From: a virus
Lineage: Duplodnaviria; Heunggongvirae; Uroviricota; Caudoviricetes
DNA: 64,000 nt
IMG/VR virus record: IMGVR_UViG_3300043425_000245
Direction: 5' to 3' (one strand)
Shown: piece after piece, positions 16,749 through 58,497 of the stretch
How positions within the stretch are numbered: position 1 is the first letter of the stretch
Layout: every line of letters begins with the position of its first letter
Made by a program: the position numbers and the translations under genes
Notes under the pieces: generated by a model
Database searches by the model: none
Told to the model about the DNA's origin: nothing
What the model saw: only the letters and a program-made list of their open reading frames with translations

Positions 16749-17510
16749 ATGGCGACAAAGCGCACAGCAAAACTTCTAGATAATGATTTAAGTGAAAAAC
16801 CAAAAGATGTTAAAGTAAATAACTCTTTGAAAATTAGGATCGATGATTTAAAAACTTTTGATCCATTAACTGCACATCAGAAAGACTTTTACGACGCTTA
16901 TAAGCGACAAGATTATTTTATTGCACTACACGGTGTAGCAGGTACAGGCAAAACATTTATTGCACTGTATAAAGCACTTGAAGAAGTTCTTGATAAGAGC
17001 AATCCGTTCAATAAGATTATTATCGTTCGTTCTGCAGTACCTTCTCGTGAAGTTGGTCACTTGCCAGGAGATTTAAATGAAAAGACAGAAATTTACAGAC
17101 AACCATACCAGCAAATCTGTACGACTCTCTTTGGAAGACCTGATGCCTACCAACGGTTGGAAGAGCAACACCACATTGAATTTATTTCTACATCGTTCAT
17201 CAGGGGTATGTCATTCGATGATGCAATTATCATCGTTGACGAAATGCAAAACCTAACCTATGAAGAGATTGACACGGTTATGACTCGTGTTGGTTATCGT
17301 TCGAAGATTATCTGGTGTGGTGATTATCGCCAAACCGATTTGAATAAGAAAAAGAATGACATGTCTGGTATTCTTAAGTTCTTTGAGATCGCTCAACATA
17401 TGAGAGCTTTCACTAGAATTGAGTTTACACCCGATGACATTGTTCGTTCATCACTAGTGAAAGATTATATCCTCGCCAAACTAAGATATGAGGATTATGT
17501 AGAGAAATAA
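16749..17510 (+). CDS. phoH: PhoH-family ATPase
   Basis: GVAGTGKTFIA, GHLPG, FIRGMSF, DEMQN, GDYRQTDL. Confidence 0.95.
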   Translation: MATKRTAKLLDNDLSEKPKDVKVNNSLKIRIDDLKTFDPLTAHQKDFYDAYKRQDYFIALHGVAGTGKTFIALYKALEEVLDKSNPFNKIIIVRSAVPSREVGHLPGDLNEKTEIYRQPYQQICTTLFGRPDAYQRLEEQHHIEFISTSFIRGMSFDDAIIIVDEMQNLTYEEIDTVMTRVGYRSKIIWCGDYRQTDLNKKKNDMSGILKFFEIAQHMRAFTRIEFTPDDIVRSSLVKDYILAKLRYEDYVEK

Positions 17511-18163
17511 TGAAAACATTTATACATCATGATTTTGCGAAGTTAGAAAGGGATACAGCTGCTGACGGTCGTCGAGTTTATAAGACGCCAGAAGGTAAGC
17601 TGTATCCTTCAGTCACATCCATCACTGGAGTTAATAGCACATTCAACAAGAGTGCTTGGATTCAACGTGTTGGCGTGGATGAAGCAAATAGAATTACTCA
17701 GCGAGCACTTGACCGTGGTACTCGCATTCACTCGTTCTGTGAAAACTTCTTACTTGGTAATGAAGTAAAGATTGATATGTTCGATCAAGATATGTGGAGC
17801 ACAATGCTACCTCTCTTGAATAAGATCGATAATATCCACTGCCTTGAAACACCACTATATTCTGACTTTCTACAAGCAGCTGGTACAGTTGACTGTATTG
17901 CTGAATATGAAGGTAAGTTATCCGTCATCGACTTCAAGACTTCGTCCAGAGTTAAAGAACGAGATGACATCCACAACTACTTTGAGCAGACTGCAGCTTA
18001 TGCTGTCATGTTTGAAGAACGTACAGGTATTCCAATCGGACGTTTGGTTATCTTGATGGTTATTGATGATGATGCTCCACGAGTGTTTATCGAAAAACGT
18101 GATGGTTGGATCGCTGGGTTCAGAAAATCCAGAATGGATTACCGTCATAAATATGGTGTATAA
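17510..18163 (+). CDS. PD-(D/E)XK exonuclease (T4-like phage family)
   Basis: YPSVT, RGTRIH, AGTVDCIAEY, VIDFKTS, QxxAYA. Confidence 0.9.
   Translation: MKTFIHHDFAKLERDTAADGRRVYKTPEGKLYPSVTSITGVNSTFNKSAWIQRVGVDEANRITQRALDRGTRIHSFCENFLLGNEVKIDMFDQDMWSTMLPLLNKIDNIHCLETPLYSDFLQAAGTVDCIAEYEGKLSVIDFKTSSRVKERDDIHNYFEQTAAYAVMFEERTGIPIGRLVILMVIDDDAPRVFIEKRDGWIAGFRKSRMDYRHKYGV
18146..18153 (+). promoter_or_regulatory. late-promoter-like motif upstream of radical SAM gene
   Basis: CATAAATA, same variant as upstream of gene 48 (33614). Confidence 0.5.
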
Positions 18164-18181
18164 TATAATTGAGGAAGATTC

Positions 18182-19636
18182 ATGATTTTTGAAATTCACG
18201 CACAACTGCAAACTGACCCTAATGATAAGAAGGTTTTTTATTATGACAACATGAAGAACATTCTTAAAGATTCTGCTGGAGTTGTCATTGAGTATGCTAA
18301 CATTCAACCGAATCCGAATAGAAAAGAGTTTACTAACTTCAGTAAGGATATCCCTTTAAAGAAGTCAAAGGCAATTAACCACCTGAAGATTCAGCTTGGT
18401 CTTTCTTGCAACTATTCTTGCGATTATTGTTCACAACGTTTCGTTGAGCGTGCACCAGAAACTTCTAAGAAAGATATTGACGCTTTCATGGCTAAGTTGG
18501 AAAACCTTGAGTTCAACGAACAAGACGGTCTTCATGTAGAATTTTGGGGTGGTGAACCTTTAGTTTATTGGAAGACTCTACGACCACTCGCTGAGACTAT
18601 CAAGGATAGATTCAAAGACTGGGAAAAGAAGCCATACTTCTCTATCATTACAAACGGTTCTATCTTAACTGATGAGATGATTGACTGGTTGATGATGATG
18701 AACTTCCAAGTTAGTATTTCACACGATGGACCAGGACAATCTGTGCGTGGTCCAGACCCATTCGATGATCCAGAAGTTAAAGAACGAATTCTTGGTTTCT
18801 ATCGTATGATGACACGTTTGAAGAAGCCATTCAGTTTCAACGCAATGTTGAACAATAAGAATACTTCAAGAAAAGCTATTTACGATTGGTTCGTAAACTT
18901 GACAGGTGATCCAGATGTATCGCTTGGAGAAGGTTCTATCGTTGATGCGTATGAAGAAGATGGTATTGTAAATTCTCTTACAACTAAGCAACAACATTTT
19001 GAATTCCGTCGCCAAGCCTTTGGTGAGATTTTTTCAACCAACGGTCAAATTGGTTTTAAGAGCATCATTATGAAGATGGCTGACTTTGGTCAACGAGTCT
19101 TGACTCATGAAGAATCAATTTACCTTGGTCAAAAGTGTGGTATGGATGATGAGCGTACTATCGCAGTTGATTTGCGTGGTAATGTTATCACTTGCCAAAA
19201 CGTTTCTGCCGCTGAAGTTTCCAAGAATGGTGAGTCACACCTTGGTGGTAACTTAGACAACTATGATGATGTTCAATTTACTTCTTCCACTCACTGGTCT
19301 AATCGTAAAGAGTGTCCAGAGTGCCCAGTGCTACACCTATGTAAAGGTGCTTGCATGTTCTTAGATGAAAAGTTCTGGGACATCAGCTGCGCTAACTCAT
19401 ATTCCGACAACGTTGCTCTTTTCGCCTTGACTTTTGTTAAGTTGACTAATGGGTATATCCCAACCCTGATTAAGAGCGATACTTTACCTCTAGACCGTCA
19501 GGATATCTGGGGTTCTATCTTTGAACATAAGGAAGAGCCTAAAAAGAAGATTATCCCGATCAAAATCGTGGCTGAACAGGTTGGTAAAATCGACGATGTT
19601 ACAGTTTATGGTAAGTCTAGAATCGAGTCAGTATAA
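18182..19636 (+). CDS. radical SAM enzyme with C-terminal SPASM-type domain
   Basis: CNYSCDYC triad, FWGGEPL, ITNGS, ISHDG; CG..DxxGNVxxC and CxxCxxxxxCxGxC..C auxiliary cluster motif. Confidence 0.92.
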   Translation: MIFEIHAQLQTDPNDKKVFYYDNMKNILKDSAGVVIEYANIQPNPNRKEFTNFSKDIPLKKSKAINHLKIQLGLSCNYSCDYCSQRFVERAPETSKKDIDAFMAKLENLEFNEQDGLHVEFWGGEPLVYWKTLRPLAETIKDRFKDWEKKPYFSIITNGSILTDEMIDWLMMMNFQVSISHDGPGQSVRGPDPFDDPEVKERILGFYRMMTRLKKPFSFNAMLNNKNTSRKAIYDWFVNLTGDPDVSLGEGSIVDAYEEDGIVNSLTTKQQHFEFRRQAFGEIFSTNGQIGFKSIIMKMADFGQRVLTHEESIYLGQKCGMDDERTIAVDLRGNVITCQNVSAAEVSKNGESHLGGNLDNYDDVQFTSSTHWSNRKECPECPVLHLCKGACMFLDEKFWDISCANSYSDNVALFALTFVKLTNGYIPTLIKSDTLPLDRQDIWGSIFEHKEEPKKKIIPIKIVAEQVGKIDDVTVYGKSRIESV

Positions 19637-19639
19637 ATA
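19632..19639 (+). promoter_or_regulatory. T4-type late promoter
   Basis: Perfect TATAAATA 20 nt before ATG 19660. Confidence 0.75.
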
Positions 19640-19659
19640 GTTAGAAATGGGCAAACATA

Positions 19660-20547
19660 ATGACTCTTCCAGTATCTCCTAATTCTATCTCTGTTTCCAA
19701 TGTAACGACAGAAGTTGGTGTAACAACCAACTCTGCGACATCAGGGGCAGACTTACAGTGGCTGAACGGATATATCAAACCCGTGGAAAGACCTACGCAA
19801 CCTAATATGCAGTCTTTCTATGGATTGGCTTACTTTACTAGAAATATTGACGGTAATTGTAACAATGCTTCCGCATCAAACTGCAACTGTAACTGCGGTA
19901 ACATTCAGTGTAGCGCATCAGCTAACTGTACAAACATTAACTGTGTAAACTGCGACACAGCACAATTCCTTCAATCAAATTGTAACTGCGCTTGTACATA
20001 CAACTGCGTTTCTAACGCCAACTGCTACTCATACAACTGTAACTGCTCTAAGATCATTTGCACTAAGTTGCATGAACTAGGTTTGATGCCTAATGATATT
20101 TTTGTAGCTGACCAAGCGTTTGGTGAACAGTTAAAGAAAACTGATCCAGAAGTTTACGAGGGGTATGTTCGTTGGGCTTCTGTTATTGTTTCTGGTATGG
20201 AAGGTACAGCCCCTGACTTTATGTTGTGGGTTAACAAAACTGACAGAAAAGAAGTTGAGAAACAAGCAACTATTAAGTGGGCACAGAAAGTGGCTAAACC
20301 ATGGTCTGAACATATGGCTTACTTGATGGGTGTTATCCCAGAAGATAACAACGTTGGACGTTTGATCATGAAGATGGGACGCCCACTTTCTAGACTTGCG
20401 GCTAAATTGCCAAAGAACTATAAGTTTGGATTATTTGGCGCTGTTACCCTTTGGATGATCTGCCCTTCATTGTATTACGCAGCAACTGCTATTGATAAAG
20501 TTCAATCACTATTATCAGTAGAACTATGGACTAAACAAAATGGATAA
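19660..20547 (+). CDS. Asn-Cys repeat protein, putative radical SAM substrate / virion appendage protein
   Basis: N-terminal MTLP..ISxSxV..E..FYG motif typical of phage fibre-tip proteins; residues 67-129 contain 15 Cys; C-terminal KIICT..GY..W domain. Confidence 0.8.
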   Translation: MTLPVSPNSISVSNVTTEVGVTTNSATSGADLQWLNGYIKPVERPTQPNMQSFYGLAYFTRNIDGNCNNASASNCNCNCGNIQCSASANCTNINCVNCDTAQFLQSNCNCACTYNCVSNANCYSYNCNCSKIICTKLHELGLMPNDIFVADQAFGEQLKKTDPEVYEGYVRWASVIVSGMEGTAPDFMLWVNKTDRKEVEKQATIKWAQKVAKPWSEHMAYLMGVIPEDNNVGRLIMKMGRPLSRLAAKLPKNYKFGLFGAVTLWMICPSLYYAATAIDKVQSLLSVELWTKQNG

Positions 20548-20971
20548 GCAACCAACAGAACAAGAACTACTAGATCTTAATATTGGGATTGTTCCTGCTT
20601 TAGATACATTTCAACAAAACCCGTTTCCAATTGGAACCATTAAGTTTGTTGATGATCAAGAGTTAGTATACAAACACGAACATGTTATGCACTGGATGGA
20701 TAACATTGTAATGTCTAGAACTTTAAACTTATCCGCAGAAGACAAAGATCGTTATTTCCAGATGATCACTGATTATGCAGATATCCTTATGAAGATTGTT
20801 GGCGATGATAACCATATTATTTGGAAAGCTGCATTGGGTAAACCTTTCGATGATTTAGAAAAGCATGCTAACAAATCAGGCGCTCAGATTGATTATGAAA
20901 AACCTAAAAAGTTGCTTGATGAGTTCTATGCTTGGCAAGAAAAACAACCAAAAAGTAAAAAGAAGAAATAA
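20540..20971 (+). CDS. hypothetical protein in the radical SAM cassette
   Basis: Overlaps the previous stop. Confidence 0.7.
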   Translation: MDKQPTEQELLDLNIGIVPALDTFQQNPFPIGTIKFVDDQELVYKHEHVMHWMDNIVMSRTLNLSAEDKDRYFQMITDYADILMKIVGDDNHIIWKAALGKPFDDLEKHANKSGAQIDYEKPKKLLDEFYAWQEKQPKSKKKK

Positions 20972-20978
20972 AATATTT

Positions 20979-20985
20979 CTAAATA
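20979..20985 (+). promoter_or_regulatory. late-promoter-like motif
   Basis: CTAAATA followed by hairpin AAGGGGTC-TTAG-GATCCCTT. Confidence 0.5.
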
Positions 20986-21028
20986 AAAAGGGGTCTTAGG
21001 ATCCCTTAAACATTTAGAGAGGTATATT

Positions 21029-21745
21029 ATGAATAATCCGAAAACTGAAGAAGATCGTAAACAATATCATTGGTATCAAAATGCCCAGAATATGTTTTGG
21101 AAAAGTCCAATCTGGGAAGTTGACCTTGGTTATGACACTGAGTGGAATGAAGCGTTACTTGAAGAAATCTACGACATTGGTCGTAATATCACATTAGGTG
21201 TTGACAAAACTCCAAGTAATAGTATCTGGGATTATGCTGACAAATATCCTCATCTAAAAGAAATAAAACAAAAGATTATTGATGTGGTCACTATGACCAT
21301 TACTAAAGAAATCCCCGAGATTCGCATGCTGAATATCAAAGGGTGTGAACATTTTATGGGTTGGATTAATGTTCGCGAACCAGGAGAGTCATTAGAAGTT
21401 CATGGGCATACTGAATCAGCCATCGCTGCGACATATTATGTTAAAGCAAAAGAAGGCTGCGGCGATATTGTTCTTTTCGACACTGCAGGTGCTATTGATT
21501 TTGAAAATAATCGTTTGAGTGGTTCTCCATACGTTCGTGCACGTAGATTTAAACCAGTTGAGGGGCGATTAATATTCTTCCCTAATTATATTCTTCATGG
21601 CGTTGACCCTAATTTGTCTGATGACCTTCGTATCTCGCTAACAACAGATATTCGCAAAGTCGTTGACCCCAATGCTTCAAATACAGTTATTCTTAAAACA
21701 TGGGCAGGTCGTATGTCTAAGATTAAAGAATGGAAGCCTGAATAA
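21029..21745 (+). CDS. 2OG-Fe(II) oxygenase-like protein (TIGR02466 type)
   Basis: WINV..GE..HxH..ATYYV..LIFFPxYxxHxV..N...RIS. Confidence 0.85.
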   Translation: MNNPKTEEDRKQYHWYQNAQNMFWKSPIWEVDLGYDTEWNEALLEEIYDIGRNITLGVDKTPSNSIWDYADKYPHLKEIKQKIIDVVTMTITKEIPEIRMLNIKGCEHFMGWINVREPGESLEVHGHTESAIAATYYVKAKEGCGDIVLFDTAGAIDFENNRLSGSPYVRARRFKPVEGRLIFFPNYILHGVDPNLSDDLRISLTTDIRKVVDPNASNTVILKTWAGRMSKIKEWKPE

Positions 21746-22281
21746 TGTTCTGTAAAGTTAATTATGAATTTGAAAAACCCTTATATGTTGTTACAGAAGG
21801 TTTAAAACGATTCACTGGTCATGAAGGGCGTGGTATTGATTATAAGAAAATCTGGTCGCCTGATGTGGAAAAGTTAATGAGCATAATCCCAAAAAGATAT
21901 TGGGGTGATTTTCACTTAACTGTTATGACTATCAACCGAGATATACCTGCGCACACCGACACAGATATTATTACCACGATCAATTACTATCTAGATTCAG
22001 GTGGTGATGATATTGATACAATATTCTTTGAATCAAAAGTGGATAACCCTAAAAAGTTTCAGATTGAAAATCAAATTGATGGTTATATTTTTGAAAAAGA
22101 AGATTTAGTTGAAGTTGGTAGGTTTAGAGCTAAACCAATGGAGTGTTGGGTTTTGGATGTCAAGAAAATACACAGCGTTGATGGAAATGTAACTGGAGTT
22201 AGAAAAGCTGTTACAATTGGCACATTTATTCATAACTATGAAGCTGTTGTTGAAATGATTAAGGAAACTGGATGTTTGTAA
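21745..22281 (+). CDS. Fe(II)/2OG oxygenase-fold protein
   Basis: IPAHTD..INYY..WVLDVKKIHSV..RKAVT (HxD..H..R); paralogue of next ORF. Confidence 0.7.
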   Translation: MFCKVNYEFEKPLYVVTEGLKRFTGHEGRGIDYKKIWSPDVEKLMSIIPKRYWGDFHLTVMTINRDIPAHTDTDIITTINYYLDSGGDDIDTIFFESKVDNPKKFQIENQIDGYIFEKEDLVEVGRFRAKPMECWVLDVKKIHSVDGNVTGVRKAVTIGTFIHNYEAVVEMIKETGCL

Positions 22282-22802
22282 AACTCAAAAACAGTTTTGA
22301 AAAACCATTATTCACTACCATTGACGGGTTGACATCATTTGCTGGAATAGATGGTAAAGGTGTTGGTCATAAAAAGGTTTGGTCGCCTGATGCTGAACAG
22401 TTTTATTCAGTTATTCCTAAAAGATATTGGGATGATTTTGATTTTACGTTGATGACTATAAATTCAGCGATATACCCTCATATTGATAGAGATTATATCT
22501 CGACTGTCAATTTCTATCTGGAAACTGGCGGTGAATATAAAACTTTGTTTTTCTCAGATGGTGAACTAGCTAATATTAATGGTGATGTTGATTATTCAAG
22601 CGGTGTATATGACGAAAGCACTCTTACTGAGATAGGTTCTTTCGTGGCAAAGAATAATGAAGCATGGTTACTGGACGTTTCTGTGATACACACTGTTCAT
22701 AATATTCATGGGAATGAAAGAAAAGCCCTTTCGTTGAGAACCAAGAAATACAACTACACTGAAGTGTATAATATGTTAAAGGAAACTGATAATGTGGTAT
22801 GA
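22272..22802 (+). CDS. Fe(II)/2OG oxygenase-fold protein
   Basis: IYPHID..VNFY..WLLDVSVIHTV..RKALS; paralogue of previous ORF. Confidence 0.7.
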   Translation: MFVKLKNSFEKPLFTTIDGLTSFAGIDGKGVGHKKVWSPDAEQFYSVIPKRYWDDFDFTLMTINSAIYPHIDRDYISTVNFYLETGGEYKTLFFSDGELANINGDVDYSSGVYDESTLTEIGSFVAKNNEAWLLDVSVIHTVHNIHGNERKALSLRTKKYNYTEVYNMLKETDNVV

Positions 22803-23568
22803 AAGATTAGATGTTCAATTTGATATTGAACGATTAAGAAAAGATGTTCGCGAGCACGTGTTCACCTTGGGTGATCAAGTTATTCAAGGTGAAGAATATG
22901 AAACTCCTCAGTATCATGGGTTTGGTGGTTGGACTTTATTAAGTAGAACTGCTGATTGGAGAGATGGTTGGGAAGCTATTCAAACTGAAACTGGTACATC
23001 CCTTGAGCAAATGTTACCAACTCAAGAGTTAATTTTAAAAGCTCACAAGCACTTTGGTATTGCCCATAGTCTTGAACACGATAAACCAACTCAAGCATAT
23101 GTTGGTTACATTAAAGAAGTTATTGATACTTTAAAAGATATGGGTTTGACTCCACGAAGAGCAAGAATTACTTGTTTAAAAGCTGGATGTAAATCTCTCG
23201 TACATAAAGATGCTGACACAACTGAGTATATGGCACGTTTACATATTCCTCTTTGGACGAATGAGAAATGCGTTCATATTTGTGAGGGTGATAACTTACA
23301 TATGAAAGCTAATGGTTCTGCATACATCCTATGGACTAACTTGTGGCATCAAATTCGTAATGATTCAGATGAAGATCGTTACCATATTATAATGGATGTT
23401 TATGACACCAAAAAGATTACTCAAAACTTTAAATATGAAGGTAATTTTGAAGAGCTAGAAAACTTTGTGCGTGGTACAAGAGAACAAGTTGAATCTGTTG
23501 AATTGACTGAAGACGATAAGGAATTCTTTGATGCGTTGAAGAAAAGATACGTCACAAAAAAGGCTTGA
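22792..23568 (+). CDS. aspartyl/asparaginyl beta-hydroxylase-like oxygenase
   Basis: ARITxL..G..HKD..RLHIPLxTN..HxxxNxSxxDRxHII. Confidence 0.8.
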   Translation: MWYERLDVQFDIERLRKDVREHVFTLGDQVIQGEEYETPQYHGFGGWTLLSRTADWRDGWEAIQTETGTSLEQMLPTQELILKAHKHFGIAHSLEHDKPTQAYVGYIKEVIDTLKDMGLTPRRARITCLKAGCKSLVHKDADTTEYMARLHIPLWTNEKCVHICEGDNLHMKANGSAYILWTNLWHQIRNDSDEDRYHIIMDVYDTKKITQNFKYEGNFEELENFVRGTREQVESVELTEDDKEFFDALKKRYVTKKA

Positions 23569-23593
23569 CTTCCAATAAATAATCAGGTATAAT
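23565..23593 (+). promoter_or_regulatory. sigma70-type promoter of tmRNA gene
   Basis: TTGACT-17-TATAAT. Confidence 0.85.
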
Positions 23594-23599
23594 ATAGGT

Positions 23600-23916
23600 T
23601 ATTGCTGTAATCCCTTCAAAGCGAAGGACTTCTGGACGGGGGTTCGACTCCCCCCATCTCCACCAAAAGCACATACATCGCTTCTCACCTGAAATAGTGC
23701 GATGGTACAGATGATAGTGGTGAAGTAATATCTGCTTATGTGTGCTTTTGATGGGGATGCCATGGTTTCGACAGGGGTAGATAGTAGAGACGGCAGCACG
23801 TCAGGAGTAGACGTTAAAAGCAAATCAAACTAAATGCAAACGATGAAGTTTTCGCATTGGCAGCCTAAACGCTGACTAGGGTTTCGATGGGTTTCCTCGT
23901 AACAGAATAACCCATC
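23600..23916 (+). ncRNA. ssrA: circularly permuted (two-piece) tmRNA, tag ANDEVFALAA
   Basis: T arm and acceptor 3' end GGGGGTTCGACTCCCCC-CATCTCC-A-CCA (to 23665) precede the 5' end GGGGATG..TTCGAC (23753); G3-U70 pair; tag ORF 23836-23868; outer ends approximate. Confidence 0.92.
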
Positions 23917-23933
23917 ACTAATTCGGAGATATT

Positions 23934-24437
23934 ATGATCGGTGTTGTATTAGGTAATGGTCCAAGTCGTGAGTTCTACGATAGAAAAGGTGATATTGTCC
24001 TTGGTTGTAATATTCCCAATGAACAATTCAGCGTAGATGCGACTGTTATTTGCGATGAAGAAATTGCTTGGATTATTAAGAATGACTTGACTTTAATTCA
24101 AGTTCCAGTTATAATATCTACTAAGGTGTTTGAAAAATTAAAAGAGTTTAAGATTGAAGACCAGTTTATAATCTTAGACGTTTTCAAACCTAAAGACTGG
24201 TACAATGCAGCCCACTATGCTGCAGAATATTTGATACAAAACACTGAGTGTGAACAGATAGAGTTATGGGGTTGCGACTCTATTTTTGAGAATACTGTTT
24301 CATCTACAACTGGAAAATTAATCCAGCAAAGCACTCAAGGTGATACAAGGTTTGTTCGTAATTGGCGTAGAGTTTGGAATGAGATGCACCTGAATAACCC
24401 TGATGTGCATTTCGTGGCTATGAGAATGCCTAAATAA
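23934..24437 (+). CDS. hypothetical Rossmann-like protein
   Basis: VLGNGPSR..GCN..IELWGCDS motif, as in sugar-transferase-like phage proteins. Confidence 0.65.
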   Translation: MIGVVLGNGPSREFYDRKGDIVLGCNIPNEQFSVDATVICDEEIAWIIKNDLTLIQVPVIISTKVFEKLKEFKIEDQFIILDVFKPKDWYNAAHYAAEYLIQNTECEQIELWGCDSIFENTVSSTTGKLIQQSTQGDTRFVRNWRRVWNEMHLNNPDVHFVAMRMPK

Positions 24438-49766: not shown

Positions 49767-52700
49767 ATGGCACTAGATTTTAATACCGAACCGTATTTTG
49801 ACGATTATAACTCAGCGAAGGATTTCTATCGCGTCTTGTTTCGTCCAAGCTACGCAGTTCAAGCCCGTGAACTAACTCAATTACAAACTATCCTACAAAA
49901 TCAGGTTTCTAGGTTCGGTGATCACGTATTTAAGAACGGATCTCAAGTTATCCCAGGTTCTGTTAACGTAGACAACAAAGTTCATTTTATTAAACTTGAA
50001 CAGTTTACTGGTACTCTAGACGTTACAACTTACATTGAAACTCTAAAGAACAAAGTTGTTACTGGTGAGACATCTGGTGTTAAGATGGTTGTTGTCGACA
50101 CTTCTGGTGGTGGCACTATCGTTGATAATCTAGACGAACCTACATTGTATTGTAAGGTTATTGGTACTGCCGACGACAATGTAACAAATAGACTTATCCC
50201 AGGCGAGAACTTGGTTGCTCTAACTGCAGACAACCAACTTTCAACTAACTATCGCCTTGCTGAAGATCAGTTAACTGACATTCCAGTTATCGTTAAAGCC
50301 ACTGGTTCTTCTGGTGAAGAGCCTTCAGTGTACCTAACAGCACCAACTTCTGAATTCCCAAACCCAGAATCTTCTAACGTTCTAGGTTATGCATACAGCG
50401 TTGAAGTCAAAACTGGTATCTATTACGTTGACGGCATTTTCGTTCGTAACGATGATTTGAAGTTATACGTTGGTCGTTTTACAAACAGACCATCATATCG
50501 CGTTGGTTTCAAAGTAACAGAAGAATACATTACACCAGAAGACGACGAGTCTATCCTAGACAACGCCACTGGTTCTTATAACTTCGCTGCTCCTGGCGCT
50601 CACCGTTACAAAATCTCTCTTTCTCTAGTTAAATTACCATTGACTGGAACAGACACATTCAAGTTTATTGAATTGGTTCGTGTTGTTGATGGTCGTATTC
50701 AATATAAGATTGAGCGTTCTTCTTACGCTGAATTGGAGAAAACTCTAGCTCGTCGTACATTCGATGAGTCTGGTAACTATGAAGTAAACAAGTTTAAAGT
50801 TTCTTCCAGAGAACACTTAAACGACGGCAAGAACCAAGGTGTATATCCTCCACTTGTTGGTGTTGCTGAAAACGGTGTAGTTTATGGTGATCAAAACAAG
50901 TTTGTTGTTGTGGTTGATCCAGGCAAAGCATACATCAACGGTTATGAAGTTGAGTCTACTGCATCTCAATTCTTAGAATTTAATAAAGCCCGTGAAATCG
51001 GCGCTGAAGAGTTTGGACACGTTAAACGTCTTGGTCTTCAGAATATTGGTTTCAACTATGGTCACTATGTTAAGGTTAATAACCTTTACAAATACCCAGA
51101 CATCTCAAACTTTGAGAAAGTCTACCTTGTTAAGAAATTACAAAACCGTCCAGCTACTTTAAGCTGTACTGTTGTTGCTGGTGTTGTTCAATCCCCTATT
51201 ACTATCATTGATGGTGGTGAAGGATATGGTTCAGCTCCAACTATCGTATTCCAAGCAGTATCTAACACTGGTCAAGACGCTGAGGCTACTGCAACTGTTG
51301 TTGATGGTAAGATTACTGCAATCACTCTAGTTGATGGTGGTTCAGGTTATACAGAAGCTCCATTTGTTTATGCTAACGATGGTGGTATCGGTTTAGGTCT
51401 TGCTCCAACAGCTTCTGATATTGTTGGTACAGCTAGAGTTAAAGCTATTGAGTTGAACTCTGGTGAATTCACATCTACAACTACTGCTTATAAACTTGGT
51501 TTGTTTGATGTTAACATGTTCTCTGGCTACTCTTTTGATAGAGACGTTAAGTCAGTTATTGGTACAGCAGCTTCAAATAACTTCAGCTGTAACATCAATC
51601 CAACTCTTGTAAGCGTTATTGGTCAAGGTACTTCTTCAACTTCTTCTGCTACAATCACTGGAGCAGGTACTGCGTTTGACAGTGTATTGAAAGTTGGCGA
51701 TATTGTTTTCTTGAACGATACTAAAGTTGGTACTGTTCAGAGCTTTAATAACTTTACAATCACTCTAACAGCAAACGCTCTAGTTTCTGTTACAGGCGGT
51801 CGTATCAGCGTGTTTACAAGCACAATCTACGAACCTAACTATGAGTCTCTATTGTTCCCAGTTGGACAAACATTCATCAAGACTCTAAAAGCTAGAAACT
51901 CTAACAACACAGCTGATACAGTTGATAGCTCAACAACAGTTGTTCGTCGTTTGTTTGGTACAAAGAACACTACAACTAACAAAGTTGAATTCAGAGTAAC
52001 TGACTTAGATGAGACTCTAGAATTTGATACAGATTTGTCTAACTATCTGTTGATCAACATTGATAATAACCGTCCAGTTAATATCAACGAAGCAAATACA
52101 ACATTCAACACAACTGGCGCTCGTCAAACTGTTTACTTTGACAAAGTTCCAAACGGTAACTATCGTTTGATTGCTTCTGTAAACCAAGAAGAAGTTTCTG
52201 CAGCTGCTAGATTGAAAGTGTTGACTACTAACTACGAAAAAGAGTATGTTGGTAAGAATACAGTTTCTGCTTCAACTATCGCTCTTGAGTACTGCGACAT
52301 CTTTAAATTGAAGTCTGTTTTGATGACTCCTGGTGATTATGACGCATTTGACCCAGACAATGCAGTTGACATCACAGATCGTTATACTCTAGACAACGGT
52401 CAACGTGACACTTACTATGGTAAGGGTAAGCTACTTCTTAAGTCTGGCTTCCAGTCACCATCTGGCGCAATCCAAGTTAAGTATGATTACTTCAGTGCCG
52501 ATTTGAACGGCAGCGGTAACTATTTCTCAGTTGACTCTTACAAGAACGTTGTTGATTACTCTGAGATTCCATCTCACTTTGTAACTGACCCAACTACTGG
52601 TAAGCGTTCTGAAGTTAACCTAGCAGACGTTATTGACTTCAGACCATACATTGGTGGTTTGAACGCAAACACTTTCAAACCAGAACTACCAAAGTTTGGT

Positions 52701-55700
52701 TCTGATATGATCGCTCCAACTGCTTTCTATATCGGTAGAATTGACAAGATCGTTTTGGACTCTGTTGGTAAATTCAACGTAATCAACGGTGTGCCAGATC
52801 AACAACCAAAAGAGCCATCAGACCCTAAAGACGGTATGGTGATTGCATCTATCATCGTTCCACCATATACTCAAAACATTGGCGAGGTTGTAATCAAGCA
52901 ACGTGATAACAAACGTTATACAATGCGCGACATTGGTAATCTAGAGCGTAGAATTTCTAATCTAGAATACTATGTAACACTATCTCTTCTAGAAAAAGAT
53001 ACAGCCGATTTACAAATCACTGATGAAACTACTGGTCTTGATCGTTTCAAGAACGGTTTTATCGTTGACCAATTTACTGGTCACGGTATCGGTGATGTTA
53101 AGAACGAAGATTACAGAATCTCTGTGGATACACAAAACCGTGTTCTACGCCCAATGCACCACGCTCGTGCTCTAGAGATCGTTGAAGACCTAATTTCTGG
53201 TACAGATAGATCTTCTAAACTATACCAAAAGACTGGTGATGTTATCACATTACCTTACCAAGAAGATTCATTCATCTTTAACAACCACGCTACTCAAGCC
53301 ATGGACATTCACGCATTGTCTATGGGTGCGTTCAAAGGTCAAGTTCAGTTAATCCCTGAGGGTGATAACTGGAAGTCGGTTGATCGTCGTCCAGACCTAG
53401 TTGCTGTAGACGATAACAACTATGACGCTATCAAATTCATGGCGGAAGAACTTGGTGTCACTGGCACTAAGTGGGACGAGTGGCAAACTAACTGGACTTC
53501 AATCAGCACACGATCTGTTGCTGGCGAGACTAGAGAGTGGGTTGGCGGTATTCGCGTTACAGGTTATGAAACAACATATACTGATTATGTTGGTTATAAC
53601 TACCGCAATGGCGTTGAGACTACTCTAACATCTTCAGTTAATGCTCAAGACTACGGTGATAGAGTTGTTGATGTTTCATATATTCCATATATGAGATCTA
53701 GACCAGTAACTATCATTGCTCAAAACTTAAAGTCAAAGACTCGCTTCTGGCCATTCTTTGATAACGTTTCAGTTGAAAGCTACTTCAAACCAGCTGATGT
53801 GTTCTCTGTAACACGCGATGGACAATCTTTAATGTCGTTTGATCAAAATGACTTGAACGATAACATCCTAGCGGACAGCGATCGTAGAGCTTACAATGGT
53901 AAAATTGAACCAGCGTTTGTTGTTGGTGACGTTCTAACAAACTCTACACACCAACCAGTTAACATTACTCAAATTGTACACTTGACTCAAGAAGCTGCAA
54001 CTTTTGACGTATATGTTGGTTCTACTCAAAACATTAAAGTTGGTCACCACGTTGTAATGTTCAACTTGGACTTCCACAACGAGTCAAGCGATCTAAACCT
54101 TTCTGACCTAAAAGAAAACCAAGTATCTTCTAACGGTGTTAAGATTATCGGCGAGAGCGATGGTATTCTAACTAATGATAATTCTTCTAAGGAATTGAAC
54201 CTTAAGAAGTTCAAGGTAACAGCAGTTTCTGGTACAAAACTAACTCTTGCTAACCTTGACGACACATTGATCCCAGCTTTCAGTTCATACGACTTAGAAT
54301 CTTATGATACAAACAAGTTTGGTAAGCTAATGCGTTTGAAGGCTTCTGGTGTTGTTGCTTGGGGTGGTATTGTAGAATCTTCTGACAATATTGGTCCAAT
54401 CACTCAGACTATTCACCTAGTTAACATCAAGAATGGTTTTGCTATCGGTGAAACTCTTTCTGGTTCTGTAAACATTGGAAACAGCTCTTCATACAATGGC
54501 GTTACAATTAACTCCATCAACGGTGTAACTAGCACAACAGTTGTTCCTACTTACAAGGATACTAGCGACGCATTGATCACTGATGAAGACGGTACAGCAG
54601 TTGGTGTATTCTTTATCCCTGAGACTGCAGAGTTGAGTTTCCGTACTGGCGAGCGTACATTCAAACTTACAGATAATAAGTCTAACAGCAACATGTCGTT
54701 TGACTCTATTGGTTCTGCTGTTTATTACTCTCAAGGTGTTACACTAAGCAAAGAAAGAACTATCGTTTCTAGCAGAAGCGTTGAGTTTGTTCAAGCTGAT
54801 ACTTATGAAGACACTCAGTCTCTACCACCAGTAAGAAGAACAACTACTTCTACACGCCAGTTGTATCAATACACATACGACCCTCTAGCACAGACATTCA
54901 CTGTCAGCGCTGAAGGTGGTTGTTTCTTGACTTCTGTTGACTTGTACTTTGCTGCAAAGGGTGTTCGCCCAGTTTCTGTTGAACTAAGAAACACTGATAA
55001 CGGTGTTCCTTCTTCTAAGATTATTCCTTTCTCTAAGGTTACTAAACCAGCAAGCGAATTGGTTGTATCTGATGACAGTTCTGTTGCAACAACTTTCAAA
55101 TTCAAGTCTCCAATTTACTTACAAGATACTGAGACTTACTGTTTCGTTGTTATGACTGACGAGCCAGGAACTCAGCTATGGGTTTCTGAGATGGGTGGTA
55201 CTGATATCATCACTGATAACACTATCGCTGGTCAACCATTAACTGGTTCACTATACGCTTCTCAGAATGCTAGAGAGTGGGAAATTCACCCTCTACTAGA
55301 CATGAAGTTTACTTTGAACAAGGCTAAGTTTGATATCACATCAACTGCTGAGTTGACATTGAAGTCTGTTCCACCAGACATGATCAACCTACCATTGAAC
55401 CCGTTTGAGATCACTCCTGATACTAACAAGATCAGAGTGTATGCTCCAAACCACGGTATGTTGGCTGGTCAGATTGTTAACATTCAAGGTGTATCTGAAG
55501 GATACTACGGTACAGAATACAATGATGCTGGTATCCCAAGCGTTCTATTGAATACTTCTCACACTGTTTCTTCTTCTGGTCTAGAAAAAGATTCTTTCGT
55601 TATCAACCTAGTTACAACAGTTAATGGTCAGAACGCTTTGACTTACAAGGATGGCTCTGGCGCTATCATTGAAGGTACTGTTGCAAACTTTGTAAAAGGC

Positions 55701-57011
55701 GAGTACGGTGGAACTGGTGTACGTTGTTCTTCTAGCATCAACATGGATGTTATGTACTTGAAGACTTCTGATTTGAGCTTCCAAGGAACTGAAATCAACT
55801 ACACAGTTAAGGCTCAAGAAGTTGGTGGCTCTATGACAAACGCTTTACCGTTTGTTGCAAATAGCAATTACAACTTCCCAACAAGAATGAACATTCGTTC
55901 TTTCGAGAACCAACTTACTGATATCAACGGCAACAAACAGTCTTCTGTTCAGATTATCGCCAGCTTGTATTCTTCAAACGAGAATATTTCTCCAGTGGTT
56001 GATTTGCAACAGCTATCCGCTTACGCTATCTCTAACTTGATTAACGATACTGCTTCTGAAACAGTAAACGTACTAGAAATCGACAAGAGAGTATTAGTTG
56101 CTGGTGGTGACTTGGTTACTGCTGACTACTCTAAAGCTGGTACTGGTACTATTTCTATCACACAGAATACTGATACAATCACTGGTACTGGAACTTCTTT
56201 CTCTACTGAAGTTGTTGCAACTAACATCATCAAGAAAGTTGACGGTACTGTTATCGGTACTGTGAGTTCAGTGAACGGTTCTACAATTACCCTAGCTGCT
56301 AACTACACAGGAACTACAATCACTAACGGCGAATTTGTAATCCAGTCAATTCCAACTATCTCGTTTGTTAACGAAAATGGCGTTGGTGTTATTAAGACTA
56401 ACATTGATTCTTCTGATAACCTATTGGCTTCTGCTGGTATCGGTAAGACTCTAGTTATCTCTAATGTTGCAAGCGGTATTGACGGTGAATATCTAATCAC
56501 TAATATCGTTGAAGTGGAAGACGCTACAACATACGCTGGTAATGAAGAACTAGATCTAACAAAGGTTGTTCTAGAAAGAGCCTTTGGTACTACATCTTCA
56601 TTCAACATGACTACTGATAACGACTTTGAAGTTGCAGTGTATGATAAGTACGTTAGCGACATTGGTCCAATCGGTTCTTCTAATAACGCAAACTATGTAA
56701 CTAGAACATTGTCTTTGTCTGAAGCTGCTGATTCGTTCAAGATTATCTTTGATGCGAACATTGTTAACAATACAGCTATCAAGGTATTCTACAGAACATG
56801 GACTGGTAACGTTGATCTAAGAAAAGTACCTTATACAGACACTGGTTACGTTTCTATAAATACAGACGCTGATGGTAAATTTATTGAAAGAAGCATTGAT
56901 GTTATTGACATCGAACCTTTCTATAATATCCAAATCAAGATTGTATTGAAATCTACAAACCCTGTATATGTACCTAAGATTAAAAACTTTAGATTGTTGG
57001 CGCTGTCATGA
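49767..57011 (+). CDS. large virion structural protein (DUF4815-like)
   Basis: PYFDDY..FxRVLFRP..VQARELTQLQ..GAHR..ARRTxDESGxY..RFKNGFIVD.F..DPLAQTF. Confidence 0.85.
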   Translation: MALDFNTEPYFDDYNSAKDFYRVLFRPSYAVQARELTQLQTILQNQVSRFGDHVFKNGSQVIPGSVNVDNKVHFIKLEQFTGTLDVTTYIETLKNKVVTGETSGVKMVVVDTSGGGTIVDNLDEPTLYCKVIGTADDNVTNRLIPGENLVALTADNQLSTNYRLAEDQLTDIPVIVKATGSSGEEPSVYLTAPTSEFPNPESSNVLGYAYSVEVKTGIYYVDGIFVRNDDLKLYVGRFTNRPSYRVGFKVTEEYITPEDDESILDNATGSYNFAAPGAHRYKISLSLVKLPLTGTDTFKFIELVRVVDGRIQYKIERSSYAELEKTLARRTFDESGNYEVNKFKVSSREHLNDGKNQGVYPPLVGVAENGVVYGDQNKFVVVVDPGKAYINGYEVESTASQFLEFNKAREIGAEEFGHVKRLGLQNIGFNYGHYVKVNNLYKYPDISNFEKVYLVKKLQNRPATLSCTVVAGVVQSPITIIDGGEGYGSAPTIVFQAVSNTGQDAEATATVVDGKITAITLVDGGSGYTEAPFVYANDGGIGLGLAPTASDIVGTARVKAIELNSGEFTSTTTAYKLGLFDVNMFSGYSFDRDVKSVIGTAASNNFSCNINPTLVSVIGQGTSSTSSATITGAGTAFDSVLKVGDIVFLNDTKVGTVQSFNNFTITLTANALVSVTGGRISVFTSTIYEPNYESLLFPVGQTFIKTLKARNSNNTADTVDSSTTVVRRLFGTKNTTTNKVEFRVTDLDETLEFDTDLSNYLLINIDNNRPVNINEANTTFNTTGARQTVYFDKVPNGNYRLIASVNQEEVSAAARLKVLTTNYEKEYVGKNTVSASTIALEYCDIFKLKSVLMTPGDYDAFDPDNAVDITDRYTLDNGQRDTYYGKGKLLLKSGFQSPSGAIQVKYDYFSADLNGSGNYFSVDSYKNVVDYSEIPSHFVTDPTTGKRSEVNLADVIDFRPYIGGLNANTFKPELPKFGSDMIAPTAFYIGRIDKIVLDSVGKFNVINGVPDQQPKEPSDPKDGMVIASIIVPPYTQNIGEVVIKQRDNKRYTMRDIGNLERRISNLEYYVTLSLLEKDTADLQITDETTGLDRFKNGFIVDQFTGHGIGDVKNEDYRISVDTQNRVLRPMHHARALEIVEDLISGTDRSSKLYQKTGDVITLPYQEDSFIFNNHATQAMDIHALSMGAFKGQVQLIPEGDNWKSVDRRPDLVAVDDNNYDAIKFMAEELGVTGTKWDEWQTNWTSISTRSVAGETREWVGGIRVTGYETTYTDYVGYNYRNGVETTLTSSVNAQDYGDRVVDVSYIPYMRSRPVTIIAQNLKSKTRFWPFFDNVSVESYFKPADVFSVTRDGQSLMSFDQNDLNDNILADSDRRAYNGKIEPAFVVGDVLTNSTHQPVNITQIVHLTQEAATFDVYVGSTQNIKVGHHVVMFNLDFHNESSDLNLSDLKENQVSSNGVKIIGESDGILTNDNSSKELNLKKFKVTAVSGTKLTLANLDDTLIPAFSSYDLESYDTNKFGKLMRLKASGVVAWGGIVESSDNIGPITQTIHLVNIKNGFAIGETLSGSVNIGNSSSYNGVTINSINGVTSTTVVPTYKDTSDALITDEDGTAVGVFFIPETAELSFRTGERTFKLTDNKSNSNMSFDSIGSAVYYSQGVTLSKERTIVSSRSVEFVQADTYEDTQSLPPVRRTTTSTRQLYQYTYDPLAQTFTVSAEGGCFLTSVDLYFAAKGVRPVSVELRNTDNGVPSSKIIPFSKVTKPASELVVSDDSSVATTFKFKSPIYLQDTETYCFVVMTDEPGTQLWVSEMGGTDIITDNTIAGQPLTGSLYASQNAREWEIHPLLDMKFTLNKAKFDITSTAELTLKSVPPDMINLPLNPFEITPDTNKIRVYAPNHGMLAGQIVNIQGVSEGYYGTEYNDAGIPSVLLNTSHTVSSSGLEKDSFVINLVTTVNGQNALTYKDGSGAIIEGTVANFVKGEYGGTGVRCSSSINMDVMYLKTSDLSFQGTEINYTVKAQEVGGSMTNALPFVANSNYNFPTRMNIRSFENQLTDINGNKQSSVQIIASLYSSNENISPVVDLQQLSAYAISNLINDTASETVNVLEIDKRVLVAGGDLVTADYSKAGTGTISITQNTDTITGTGTSFSTEVVATNIIKKVDGTVIGTVSSVNGSTITLAANYTGTTITNGEFVIQSIPTISFVNENGVGVIKTNIDSSDNLLASAGIGKTLVISNVASGIDGEYLITNIVEVEDATTYAGNEELDLTKVVLERAFGTTSSFNMTTDNDFEVAVYDKYVSDIGPIGSSNNANYVTRTLSLSEAADSFKIIFDANIVNNTAIKVFYRTWTGNVDLRKVPYTDTGYVSINTDADGKFIERSIDVIDIEPFYNIQIKIVLKSTNPVYVPKIKNFRLLALS

Positions 57012-57256
57012 GTCTAGTACAAGTTGATGGTTTTAATTCTTTGAGAAAGGACACCGCTACTGGCGGTGTCGTTAATGTTGACAAGAAATCATATGAAGCC
57101 CATAAAGCTCAAAAGATGATTGCTGTTAGAAACGCACAAGCTCAAAAGTCTACTCAAGAATCTGTAACCATGCTGCAGGATGAAATAAATATACTAAAAG
57201 CTGATTTAGTTGACATAAAAACTTTATTGGTTAAATTAATAGAAAAAGGTAACTAA
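57008..57256 (+). CDS. small coiled-coil virion-module protein
   Basis: ATGA overlap; typical follower of DUF4815 genes. Confidence 0.7.
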   Translation: MSLVQVDGFNSLRKDTATGGVVNVDKKSYEAHKAQKMIAVRNAQAQKSTQESVTMLQDEINILKADLVDIKTLLVKLIEKGN

Positions 57257-58497
57257 TGGCTGCTATTAACCTTAGACGAGACAAGGAAAGACCTCTAACA
57301 ATCGAAGAAGTAGATAATAACTTCGACGCGATTAACAGAGAGGTTGGCACTAAACTAGATACAGAATCTTTCAATGCTGAAAACATCTTATCTGTTTTAG
57401 ATGGTAACGCAGGTTTAGGGTCTGGTTTGGATGCGGATTTAGTCCGTGGTAAAACTCCAACAACTCAAGCTGTACCAGACACTTCAGTTCTTAGAGATTC
57501 TCTTGGTAACATTAATGCAAACCAGTTTTATGGTTTGCACGTCGGTGACGTTCTAGGCGACGTTCAAGGTGTTGTTACTGGCGCTCTTATCGGTAACTCT
57601 ACAAACGTTGATGGTGTGGTACAAGTGGACCACGGTGGTACTGGTGCAACTACACCATCAGCTGCCCGAACAAACCTTGGTCTTGGTTCTATCTCTACAC
57701 AGAATAAAAACACTGTAGATATTACTGGTGGTTCTATCACTGGTATTACTGACTTAGCAATCGCGGATGGTGGTACTGGTGCTTCTACAAAAGAAGGTGC
57801 TCGTTCAAACCTTGGTTTGGTTATCGGTCAAGATATTCAAGCCTATGCTGCTATTCTTGGTGGTATCAGCGCAACTATTGGCGATGGTTTGGTTGTTAGA
57901 ACTGCAACAAATACTTCTGTTATTAGAAAGTTTGTTGAGGGTAACTCTATTGAAATTACTAACGAAACTGGTAAAGACGGCGACATTACTATTGGTTTGA
58001 CTCTAGTCCCAACAGTAACTGCTATCACTAAGGGTGGCACTAATGCCTCTGGTGATATTGGCCAAGCGGATAACCGTTTTGGCGGTGCACACCTTACTAG
58101 CGTTGGTGTTGGTATTGGTGCTTCTGGCACAGCTGGTGAAGTTAGAGCAACAAATAACATTACTGCTTTTTATTCTTCTGACGCTTCATTAAAAGAAAAT
58201 ATTCAAGATGTACGAAACCCTCTTGATATTGTATGCGCTATCGGTTCTAAGACTTTCGATTGGACTGATGAATACATCAAAGAGCATGGCGGAGAAGATG
58301 GTTACTTTGTTACAAAGTCTGATTTCGGCGTTGTTGCCCAAGACGTTTTAAAAGTATTCCCACAAGCAGTAAGAAAAAGAGAGAACGGTACTCTTGCAGT
58401 AGACTATGAAAAGTTAGCAACGCTATCATTTGGCGCTGTTAAAGAATTAAAATTTCAGCTTGATATGATCAAAAAGCATATCGGAATGGAAGAGTAA
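57256..58497 (+). CDS. tail fibre protein with C-terminal intramolecular chaperone (peptidase S74-like)
   Basis: K..PLT.EEVDxNF N-terminus; SSDxxLKENI..FDW..GVxAQDV..P.AV..VDYEKL. Confidence 0.88.
   Translation: MAAINLRRDKERPLTIEEVDNNFDAINREVGTKLDTESFNAENILSVLDGNAGLGSGLDADLVRGKTPTTQAVPDTSVLRDSLGNINANQFYGLHVGDVLGDVQGVVTGALIGNSTNVDGVVQVDHGGTGATTPSAARTNLGLGSISTQNKNTVDITGGSITGITDLAIADGGTGASTKEGARSNLGLVIGQDIQAYAAILGGISATIGDGLVVRTATNTSVIRKFVEGNSIEITNETGKDGDITIGLTLVPTVTAITKGGTNASGDIGQADNRFGGAHLTSVGVGIGASGTAGEVRATNNITAFYSSDASLKENIQDVRNPLDIVCAIGSKTFDWTDEYIKEHGGEDGYFVTKSDFGVVAQDVLKVFPQAVRKRENGTLAVDYEKLATLSFGAVKELKFQLDMIKKHIGMEE

Follow-up and report, generated by a model that had tools for sequence, protein, structure and literature searches.

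We have found, in a 64,000-nucleotide stretch of a tailed phage genome (IMG/VR record IMGVR_UViG_3300043425_000245, Caudoviricetes; from here on, the window), a gene cassette that combines a radical S-adenosylmethionine (SAM) enzyme of the SPASM type, a protein with a dense run of Asn-Cys (NC) dipeptides (the Asn-Cys protein) and four genes with the fold of 2-oxoglutarate (2OG) oxygenases. The conservation of this arrangement strongly supports the view that the three components work as one functional system. We consider it fairly likely that the cassette is dedicated to the maturation of a fibre-associated protein, which would probably receive thioethers and hydroxyl groups. This would be a maturation similar to that of peptides made by ribosomes and modified after translation (RiPPs), applied by radical SAM enzymes to fibre-type proteins of phages; the linkage behind this view is strongly supported, while the chemistry is what we infer.

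The association between the enzyme and the Asn-Cys tract was apparent at two evolutionary distances. When the Asn-Cys protein was used to search IMG/VR, 80 loci of close relatives were found and in all 80 the enzyme gene was located upstream on the same strand, directly adjacent in 70 of them and separated by an insert of 0.7-1.5 kb in the other 10. The enzymes of these loci were 64-100% identical (64-90% without L003, the window's own contig) and remained next to the Asn-Cys gene even though its product had diverged to 40-69%. For the more distant comparison, an alignment led by the enzyme of Achromobacter phage JWF fetched 80 loci from bacterial genomes and metagenome-assembled genomes, mostly of Limnohabitans and other Burkholderiales, located in the tail regions of lambda-like prophages. 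The forward test was carried out on the 54 distant prophage-like loci with at least 4 kb of upstream sequence, in which the enzyme was 35-57% identical. A script detected a same-strand protein with an [N/D]C tract in 49 of the 54, and about 52 have one by eye, three of the five missed loci showing shorter NC tails on inspection; none of 5337 opposite-strand open reading frames (ORFs), analyzed as control, passed the same criterion. The tract is nearly always the very C-terminus of the protein (examples end in NCNCNCNCCGC or NCNCNCACDCCC; the fibre of Ralstonia phage RSP15 ends NCQCGN). For the reverse test, loci were picked with a DNA pattern for in-frame NCNCNCNC only, located at the end of an ORF of at least 90 aa and with at least 4.5 kb downstream, and a homologue of the enzyme was found downstream in 16 of the 17 viral loci.

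The co-occurrence of radical SAM and NC-repeat genes across phages, which the sequence-only reading of this DNA had put forward as a check, is thus far beyond chance in both directions. The gene order is not the same everywhere. In the window the enzyme precedes the NC gene, in the Polynucleobacter and Paraburkholderia loci the NC gene comes before the enzyme, and in the Limnohabitans-type loci the order is NC fibre, a protein similar to ORF047 of RSP15, oxygenases and then the enzyme. The genomic backbones are also diverse: the T4-like myovirus of the window, a lambda-like Polynucleobacter prophage, the Ackermannviridae phage RSP15 and Achromobacter phage JWF. On this comparative basis we regard it as very likely that the enzyme acts on the Asn-Cys tract.

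By its gene content, the window is part of the genome of a T4-like myovirus. It contains an RNA ligase, PhoH, a gp59-type helicase loader and gp32 and, further along, gp48-, gp5-, gp6-, gp7- and gp8-type baseplate proteins, a 2414-aa DUF4815 protein and tail fibres. The cassette (18182-23568, every gene on the + strand; Table 1) is flanked by PhoH/exonuclease (16749-18163) on one side and by a transfer-messenger RNA (tmRNA) gene on the other. The ORFs, the Pfam and NCBIfam matches and the predicted folds bear out the gene content originally claimed, namely a radical SAM enzyme, an NC-repeat protein, an ORF of no known family and four oxygenases. Overlapping start and stop codons tie each of the last three oxygenase genes to its upstream neighbour. 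An 8-nt overlap joins the start of the 143-aa ORF to the end of the Asn-Cys gene, and conservation of this ORF among relatives is weak (25-79% identity). No match to the cassette as a whole was obtained by megablast among cultured phage genomes, the close relatives being found in metagenomes only. A second NC tract was not found in the window outside the Asn-Cys gene, and scans of the cassette for sigma-70 promoters and terminators gave counts not above those of shuffled sequences.

Table 1. Features of the radical SAM/oxygenase cassette, in window coordinates
Feature	Position	Strand	Length or residues	Remarks
Late-promoter-like motif CATAAATA	18146..18153	+		7-of-8 match to T4-type late promoter; 29 nt before enzyme start
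Radical SAM/SPASM enzyme	18182..19636	+	484 aa	
Late promoter motif, exact TATAAATA	19632..19639	+		21 nt before Asn-Cys start; overlaps enzyme stop codon
Asn-Cys protein	19660..20547	+	295 aa	
Asn-Cys core	19852..20061	+	residues 65-134	presumed substrate tract
KIIC domain	20050..20544	+	residues 131-295	
ORF	20540..20971	+	143 aa	no family match
Late-promoter-like motif TCTAAATA	20979			7-of-8 match to late promoter
2OG-Fe(II) oxygenase	21029..21745	+		Pfam 2OG-FeII_Oxy_5; phrog_81
Small 2OG-oxygenase-fold protein	21745..22281	+	178 aa	translationally coupled to both neighbours
Paralogue of the 178-aa protein	22272..22802	+	176 aa	43% identity
Asp/Asn beta-hydroxylase-family oxygenase (AspH-like)	22792..23568	+	258 aa	Pfam Asp_Arg_Hydrox

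Late control had been proposed for the whole system from three promoter motifs. Only the middle one is exact, the other two being 7-of-8 matches, and the exact octamer is found three times in the window for an expectation of 3.85, i.e., not above chance. Its conservation is more informative. We have looked for the ATAAATA core within 70 nt upstream of the start codons, where 1.4% of random windows contain it, and found it before the Asn-Cys gene in 34 of 56 distinct relatives, before the enzyme in 12 of 50 and before the first oxygenase in one of 46, which is the background level. In the window itself, six of the nine copies of the core lie no more than about 70 nt upstream of an ORF start; the enzyme and the Asn-Cys gene are both among the ORFs preceded by it, and so are a tail-fibre gene and the gp48-type gene. 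This distribution suggests that a late-type promoter is conserved for the substrate gene itself, is present before the enzyme in some cases and is missing from the oxygenase block. Late control is thus retained for the Asn-Cys gene, the only one that motif conservation marks as a putative T4-type late gene; for the enzyme the signal is weak and for the oxygenases the proposal fails.

All four oxygenase assignments were confirmed, two by Pfam and two by fold together with an invariant iron-binding motif. The first gene of the block matched 2OG-FeII_Oxy_5 with 60.5 bits (threshold 27) and is present in most of the related loci. The last, AspH-like gene is a member of Asp_Arg_Hydrox (PF05118, 41.5 bits for a threshold of 22.6); by sequence, a proline cis-4-hydroxylase and a beta-hydroxylase are the closest proteins of solved structure. 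The two small paralogues between them had no Pfam match. In both, H70, D72, H143 and R153 (HxD..H..R) are invariant among 19 sequences, and AlphaFold models the 178-aa protein as a jelly-roll with a predicted local distance difference test (pLDDT) score of 92. The best structural matches of this model were 2OG oxygenases (VIA, Z 8-10), with proline hydroxylases and human AspH at Z 8.6-10.2 (proline 3-hydroxylase 10.2, AspH 8.7), so that fold, iron triad and 2OG-binding Arg place both paralogues in the 2OG-Fe(II) superfamily. In Foldseek, the top-ranked matches of the small oxygenase were thiol dioxygenases (CDO, ADO), with a TM score of about 0.4; we have rejected this assignment because of the invariant HxD..H..R and the VIA ranking.

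Genes for the AspH-like enzyme (53-91% identity) and for relatives of the 178-aa protein follow in nearly all the close loci with enough flanking sequence, although the order of the oxygenases and the exonuclease varies. In 39 of the 54 distant loci, one to three 2OG oxygenases are located between the NC gene and the enzyme; they belong to Pfam Oxy_3 and Oxy_5, that is, to other subfamilies than those of the window, and in the remaining 15 no oxygenase was detectable. That oxygenases recur in an unrelated backbone is our main reason for assigning them to the system. They could instead be independent auxiliary genes that act on nucleic acids, small molecules or other proteins and are mere neighbours. 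We find this unlikely, but of the alternatives considered here it is the one that survives best. It would account for the single late motif in 46 relatives and for the 15 distant loci with no detectable oxygenase, and aquatic T4-like phages often carry 2OG arrays of unknown role (PMC2938197, PMC7029224). It does not account for other subfamilies having come to lie between the NC gene and the enzyme in so many non-T4 loci, nor for the persistence of the AspH-like gene in nearly all 80 close loci despite the rearrangements. Besides, AspH-family enzymes hydroxylate Asn and Asp in proteins, and Asn is the dominant partner residue of the tract. On balance we lean towards the oxygenases sharing the Asn-Cys substrate with the radical SAM enzyme.

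The radical SAM enzyme is a member of its superfamily by Pfam (Radical_SAM, PF04055, 39.7 bits for a cutoff of 29.5) and of the SPASM subfamily by NCBIfam (TIGR04085, 32.7 bits for a cutoff of 27). The CX3CX2C motif (C76/C80/C83) is invariant in alignments of 5 and of 30 relatives, down to 37% identity, and so are all the Cys and the Gly of the seven-Cys SPASM motif (CX9-15GX4C ... CX2CX5CX3C ... C). The closest NCBIfam models are the PapB, QhpD, geopeptide, CcpM, nif11 and SCIFF maturases, with 55-86 bits for cutoffs of 340-520. PapB (NF047865) was the best match, with 85.6 bits over residues 66-393 (cutoff 340), followed by QhpD (TIGR03906) with 83.9 bits (cutoff 453; the better of its two stretches covers residues 61-185), and CcpM reached 69 bits over residues 57-396. 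PapB, QhpD, CcpM and SCIFF (CteB) are all maturases that form thioethers. The model of the anaerobic sulfatase-maturating enzyme (anSME; TIGR03942) gave 56.4 bits for a cutoff of 349. Since the equivalog cutoffs are all missed, the enzyme belongs to no curated family and its chemistry is not readable from family membership. The closest solved structures were 8vpo, CteB (5wgg) and anSME (4k36). Neither a protease nor an exporter gene was found in the cassette, and the window contains no amine dehydrogenase genes (the QhpC/QHNDH neighbourhood). Prediction of a complex between the enzyme and residues 55-140 of the Asn-Cys protein scored 0.00, with a pLDDT of about 30 for the partner, and counts neither way.

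For the chemistry carried out on the tract we lean towards thioethers specifically. The enzyme might instead convert Cys to formylglycine in the manner of anSME, or introduce sactionines, epimerised residues or C-C or C-O links, with the oxygenases processing the product further. The genomic linkage would be equally well explained in this way and SPASM enzymes are chemically diverse; anSME is also among the detectable relatives, both by model and by structure, and the JWF homologue was annotated by its depositors as a sulfatase-maturating enzyme. However, the anSME substrate motif C/S-x-P/A-x-R is not in the tract, the best full-length models (PapB and CcpM) describe thioether formers and the characterised Cys-rich substrates of SPASM enzymes mostly receive thioethers (PMC13692751), so that we judge a different chemistry improbable. 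As RSP15 belongs to the Ackermannviridae, we have also considered a role in DNA hypermodification, and rejected it: that pathway has as its radical SAM enzyme an SPL-like isomerase, which contains no SPASM domain and is found in another gene context (PMC8989533).

The presumed substrate has three parts, a N-terminal domain of about 60 aa, the Asn-Cys core and a C-terminal helical domain that starts at the conserved 'KIIC(T/A)KL' (the KIIC domain) and finishes in a hydrophobic helix. The whole protein has 17 Cys, of which 16, together with 18 Asn, are found within residues 65-134. This core contains 13 NC dipeptides, while shuffling gave a mean of 4.1 and none of 100,000 shuffles reached 13. 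It has also five CxC and eight NxxC (residues 74-129), i.e., the repeat of the NxxcB/NxxcA-type Cys-Asn thioether system, in which NxxcB links Cys to the Asn beta-carbon. The family comprises more than 460 metagenomic proteins of about 295 aa. Over 67 aligned homologues, C67, C95, C98, C116, C127, C129 and C134 are invariant and Asn is found before most of the conserved Cys in nearly all of the sequences. AlphaFold gave a pLDDT below 50 across the core of the monomer, which is predicted to be disordered, as might be expected for a stretch in need of modification or assembly; residues 131-290 were modelled as all-helical with pLDDT above 90. In tblastn against cultured phages only its C-terminal domain matched, in one cyanophage, and the fold search with its model found no solved structure at E<=0.001. 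AlphaFold DB and the viral libraries gave only uncharacterised proteins with the same C-terminal helical domain, and ESM Atlas unnamed viral clusters only.

Such a tract could also be a fibre motif that binds metal or Fe-S clusters or forms disulfides, similar to the needle of T4 gp37, the enzyme having an unrelated or indirect role. Alternating C-x-C would fit a beta-strand with one Cys-lined face, and metal-binding tips are known in trimeric fibres, i.e., the His-x-His iron needle of T4 gp37 and the zinc site of gp12. The authors who described CrpA, an archaeal Cys-rich protein modified by a SPASM enzyme, also suspect that modified CrpA binds metal (PMC13692751). But a dedicated SPASM enzyme that tracks the tract across phages and gene orders, together with the oxygenases, would be left unexplained, and metal binding is compatible with enzymatic modification rather than exclusive of it. 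We consider it very unlikely that the motif alone is the explanation.

The partners of the enzyme in the distant loci are clearly fibres, to judge by their sequences. In both RSP15 and JWF the enzyme is located among tail-fibre genes, and gp028 of JWF is annotated with the T4 gp36 fibre motif. A 311-aa protein of one prophage locus (L111) shares its N-terminus and collar-type repeats with JWF gp028 and ends in a NC run, and a 186-aa protein of another (L121) combines a 'GGTMTG' fibre repeat with a NC run at its end. In the Polynucleobacter prophage the genes are ordered gpJ, side tail fibre, homologue of the Asn-Cys protein and enzyme; this homologue is 48% identical to the protein of the window over N-terminal domain and core and stops right after the NC tract. 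In JWF gp028 (L002 4793-6244) and in its counterpart of Burkholderia paludis (L084 5745-7304), the NC run NCNCDCNCNCSC continues directly into a Hint/intein-like autoprocessing domain, whose first residue is the last Cys of the run (…SC-FPAGT). Self-cleavage by the Hint domain would leave the NC run as the C-terminus of the fibre, and this arrangement suggests a mature product that ends at the tract. By analogy, the KIIC domain would occupy in the window's protein the position of the self-cleaving domain of JWF. With the tract forming the C-terminal tip of fibres in relatives, the KIIC domain may be a module that is removed or that serves in assembly.

The KIIC domain is itself mobile. It also ends phage proteins of 600-1900 aa with DUF4815 or Gly_rich_2 domains, as well as, in cyanophage SynMITS9220M01, a 616-aa protein encoded within the fibre cluster. 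The latter protein (gp028 of this Synechococcus phage, L083 4669-6519) has a Gly-rich region followed by about 33 uninterrupted Pro and 8 Arg, an extreme linker ahead of the shared KIIC end module. DUF4815 proteins of 1472-1864 aa in other phages (P0126, P0131) end in the KIIC helical domain; the DUF4815 protein of the window is encoded at 49767-57011 (+).

A tail or fibre association of the window's Asn-Cys protein appears likely from these comparisons, and so does its location in the virion. Alternatively, the cassette could make a modified protein or peptide, anchored in the membrane or released, for host takeover, superinfection exclusion or the killing of competitors. The region of accessory genes near PhoH, nuclease and tmRNA would be in keeping with such a product, as would the hydrophobic C-terminal helix, a weak Pfam match to DsbD_2 and the small size of the protein (295 aa). 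Nevertheless, in a lambda-like prophage a homologue is located between tail-fibre gene and enzyme, genuine tail fibres finish in the same tract, the KIIC domain ends structural-type DUF4815 and Gly-rich proteins and the cyanophage fibre-cluster protein, and the late promoter is typical of structural genes, all of which makes a non-virion product quite improbable. As for the earlier proposal that the phage cross-links and hydroxylates its own virion appendage protein, a linked system aimed at a fibre-type protein stands, while its chemistry and the presence of the product in the virion are what we infer.

Taken together, the data are consistent with the following scheme. The 295-aa protein would be made late, from its own T4-type late promoter, and its Asn-Cys core would be the substrate of the adjacent radical SAM/SPASM enzyme. 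The enzyme would abstract a hydrogen from a carbon of the neighbouring residue and join the Cys sulfur there; Asn, found before almost all of the conserved Cys, is the obvious acceptor. A succession of such links along the tract would give a ladder of thioether cross-links, and the AspH-like and the other three 2OG oxygenases would probably hydroxylate the same tract. The product would probably be a tail- or fibre-associated part of the virion. The enzyme would bind its substrate without detectable leader or RiPP recognition element (RRE), and a whole protein as substrate would bring it closer to anSME and to CrpC, the enzyme that modifies CrpA, than to the RiPP maturases. We advance only tentatively the more specific version, in which a Cys-Asn thioether ladder with hydroxylated Asn is found at the fibre tips of several unrelated aquatic and soil phage lineages; the links may even join the chains of a fibre trimer.

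Several observations weigh against this scheme. The scores of the enzyme are 4 to 8 times below the NCBIfam equivalog cutoffs, without exception, and the logic of RRE and leader peptide was not detected, with no Pfam PqqD/RRE match in the enzyme at E<=0.01, although RREs often escape sequence detection. A tract of regularly spaced Cys in a trimeric fibre could simply bind metal. The hydrophobic C-terminal helix could mean membrane rather than virion location, and the cassette is found between PhoH/exonuclease and gp59/gp32, among early and metabolic genes and outside the tail module. The oxygenase genes lack the late motif, and tandem arrays of 2OG oxygenases exist in cyanophages without radical SAM/NC context, so that another substrate is possible (PMC2938197).

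The nearest precedents are cellular. SPASM-installed thioethers on whole proteins have been described for QhpC and, since September 2026, for CrpA of Methanococcus voltae, where CrpC, an enzyme with three [4Fe-4S] clusters, installs ranthionine thioethers on the neighbouring Cys-rich CrpA of about 29 kDa (PMC13692751). The resemblance to the phage cassette lies in the SPASM enzyme, in the adjacent Cys-rich whole-protein partner and in a repeat region modelled at low confidence; CrpC was compared with the phage enzyme by its published description. The archaeal system is cellular, CrpC has a predicted RRE, and Asn-Cys repeats, oxygenases and fibre context are missing. The CrpA motifs (ACAGM, CAVD, CPLVL), with Cys before the acceptor, differ from those of the phage tract, and the paper mentions neither phage nor Asn (PMC13692751). 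QhpD, also a SPASM enzyme, forms Cys-to-Asp/Glu methylene thioethers within the structural subunit QhpC, but with acidic acceptors and by an RRE-leader mechanism (PMC13692751), and the phage enzyme is far below the cutoff of its model. PapB (freyrasin), CteB (SCIFF), CcpM and NxxcB (NxxcA) are likewise radical SAM/SPASM enzymes that act on Cys-repeat substrates; these are short leader-dependent peptides, from bacterial clusters with the proteases and exporters that are lacking here. anSME acts without leader peptide on a protein Cys, folded or unfolded, but the sulfatase motif is not in the tract and no sulfatase is encoded nearby. The T4 gp37 and gp12 tips also carry a short regular repeat of ligand residues at the far end of a trimeric fibre, with no dedicated modifying enzyme known to accompany it, while the phage cassette has a radical SAM enzyme and oxygenases.

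As regards the oxygenases, Iyer et al. (2010) described 2OG-dioxygenase arrays in cyanophages, for which they proposed secondary-metabolite synthesis, and regarded phage tail-collar-type and collagen-like proteins as the likely substrates of bacterial beta-hydroxylases (PMC2938197). Those arrays resemble the one described here in the presence of several unrelated 2OG oxygenases in T4-like aquatic phages, but neither a radical SAM partner nor an Asn-Cys protein was described with them. A survey of pelagimyophages mentions 'radical SAM cassettes' in host-recognition clusters, without analysing them (PMC7029224). Our literature search, with subscription-only papers outside its coverage, found no description of a phage radical SAM/Asn-Cys system.

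Thioethers made by radical SAM/SPASM enzymes have thus been described in small antimicrobial peptides and, among cellular proteins, in two, QhpC and CrpA, and we found no report of them on a virus's own structural proteins. If the fibre tips are indeed cross-linked, these phages would have receptor-binding tips with a covalent chemistry missed by structure prediction and by ordinary proteomics, with a bearing on host-range prediction, fibre engineering and virion stability. The host-contact tip would be covalent, redox- and protease-proof, and its post-translational modification would be of a class so far not known for virions. Radical SAM/2OG cassettes, an abundant feature of aquatic T4-like phages that is mostly classed under auxiliary metabolic genes, would acquire a concrete and testable role, and part of the long unexplained cassettes of this kind in marine and freshwater T4-like phages would be accounted for. 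Two cultured phages, Achromobacter phage JWF and Ralstonia phage RSP15, have the enzyme beside NC-tailed fibres, the genes of the pair being gp028/gp030 and ORF048/ORF045, respectively. To these the window adds a substrate made of three domains, the last of them the KIIC end module, a location of the cassette away from the tail module, a late promoter conserved for the substrate gene alone, and a block of four oxygenases that recurs as other subfamilies in the prophage loci.

Some other genes of these loci deserve mention. In 38 of the 54 distant loci the NC-tailed fibre gene is followed by one coding for a protein of about 275 aa and no known family (for example L121 5137-5964 and L001 5314-6129, the latter being RSP15 ORF047), a further conserved partner of the cassette and possibly a chaperone or assembly factor. 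It has no detectable relationship to the window's 143-aa ORF. The window also encodes a tail-fibre protein (57256-58497, +) whose C-terminal part is a Peptidase_S74 intramolecular chaperone domain (48.5 bits), so that the same phage has another, classical type of removable fibre end module. Directly after the tail-fibre genes there are three tandem paralogues of about 325 aa (60494-61477, 61481-62452 and 62456-63433, all +), with 29-33 Cys each (9-10%) and the ending '...GAVRIKFIA(G/S)'. They match no Pfam family, and the one scanned against PHROGs fell in phrog_4205, of unknown function; they lack the NC dipeptide pattern and are probably a different family of Cys-rich fibre modules.

Directly after the AspH-like gene, at 23552-23959 (+), there is a circularly permuted two-piece tmRNA gene, for which ARAGORN predicted a permuted tmRNA with the tag ANDEVFALAA. 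Rfam assigned it 165 bits as beta_tmRNA (gathering score 84) and 148 bits as tmRNA_permuted, and a sigma-70 promoter close to consensus (TTGACT-17-TATAAT) is found at 23565. The betaproteobacterial type of this tmRNA is a hint of a betaproteobacterial host, in agreement with the Limnohabitans and Polynucleobacter relatives of the cassette.

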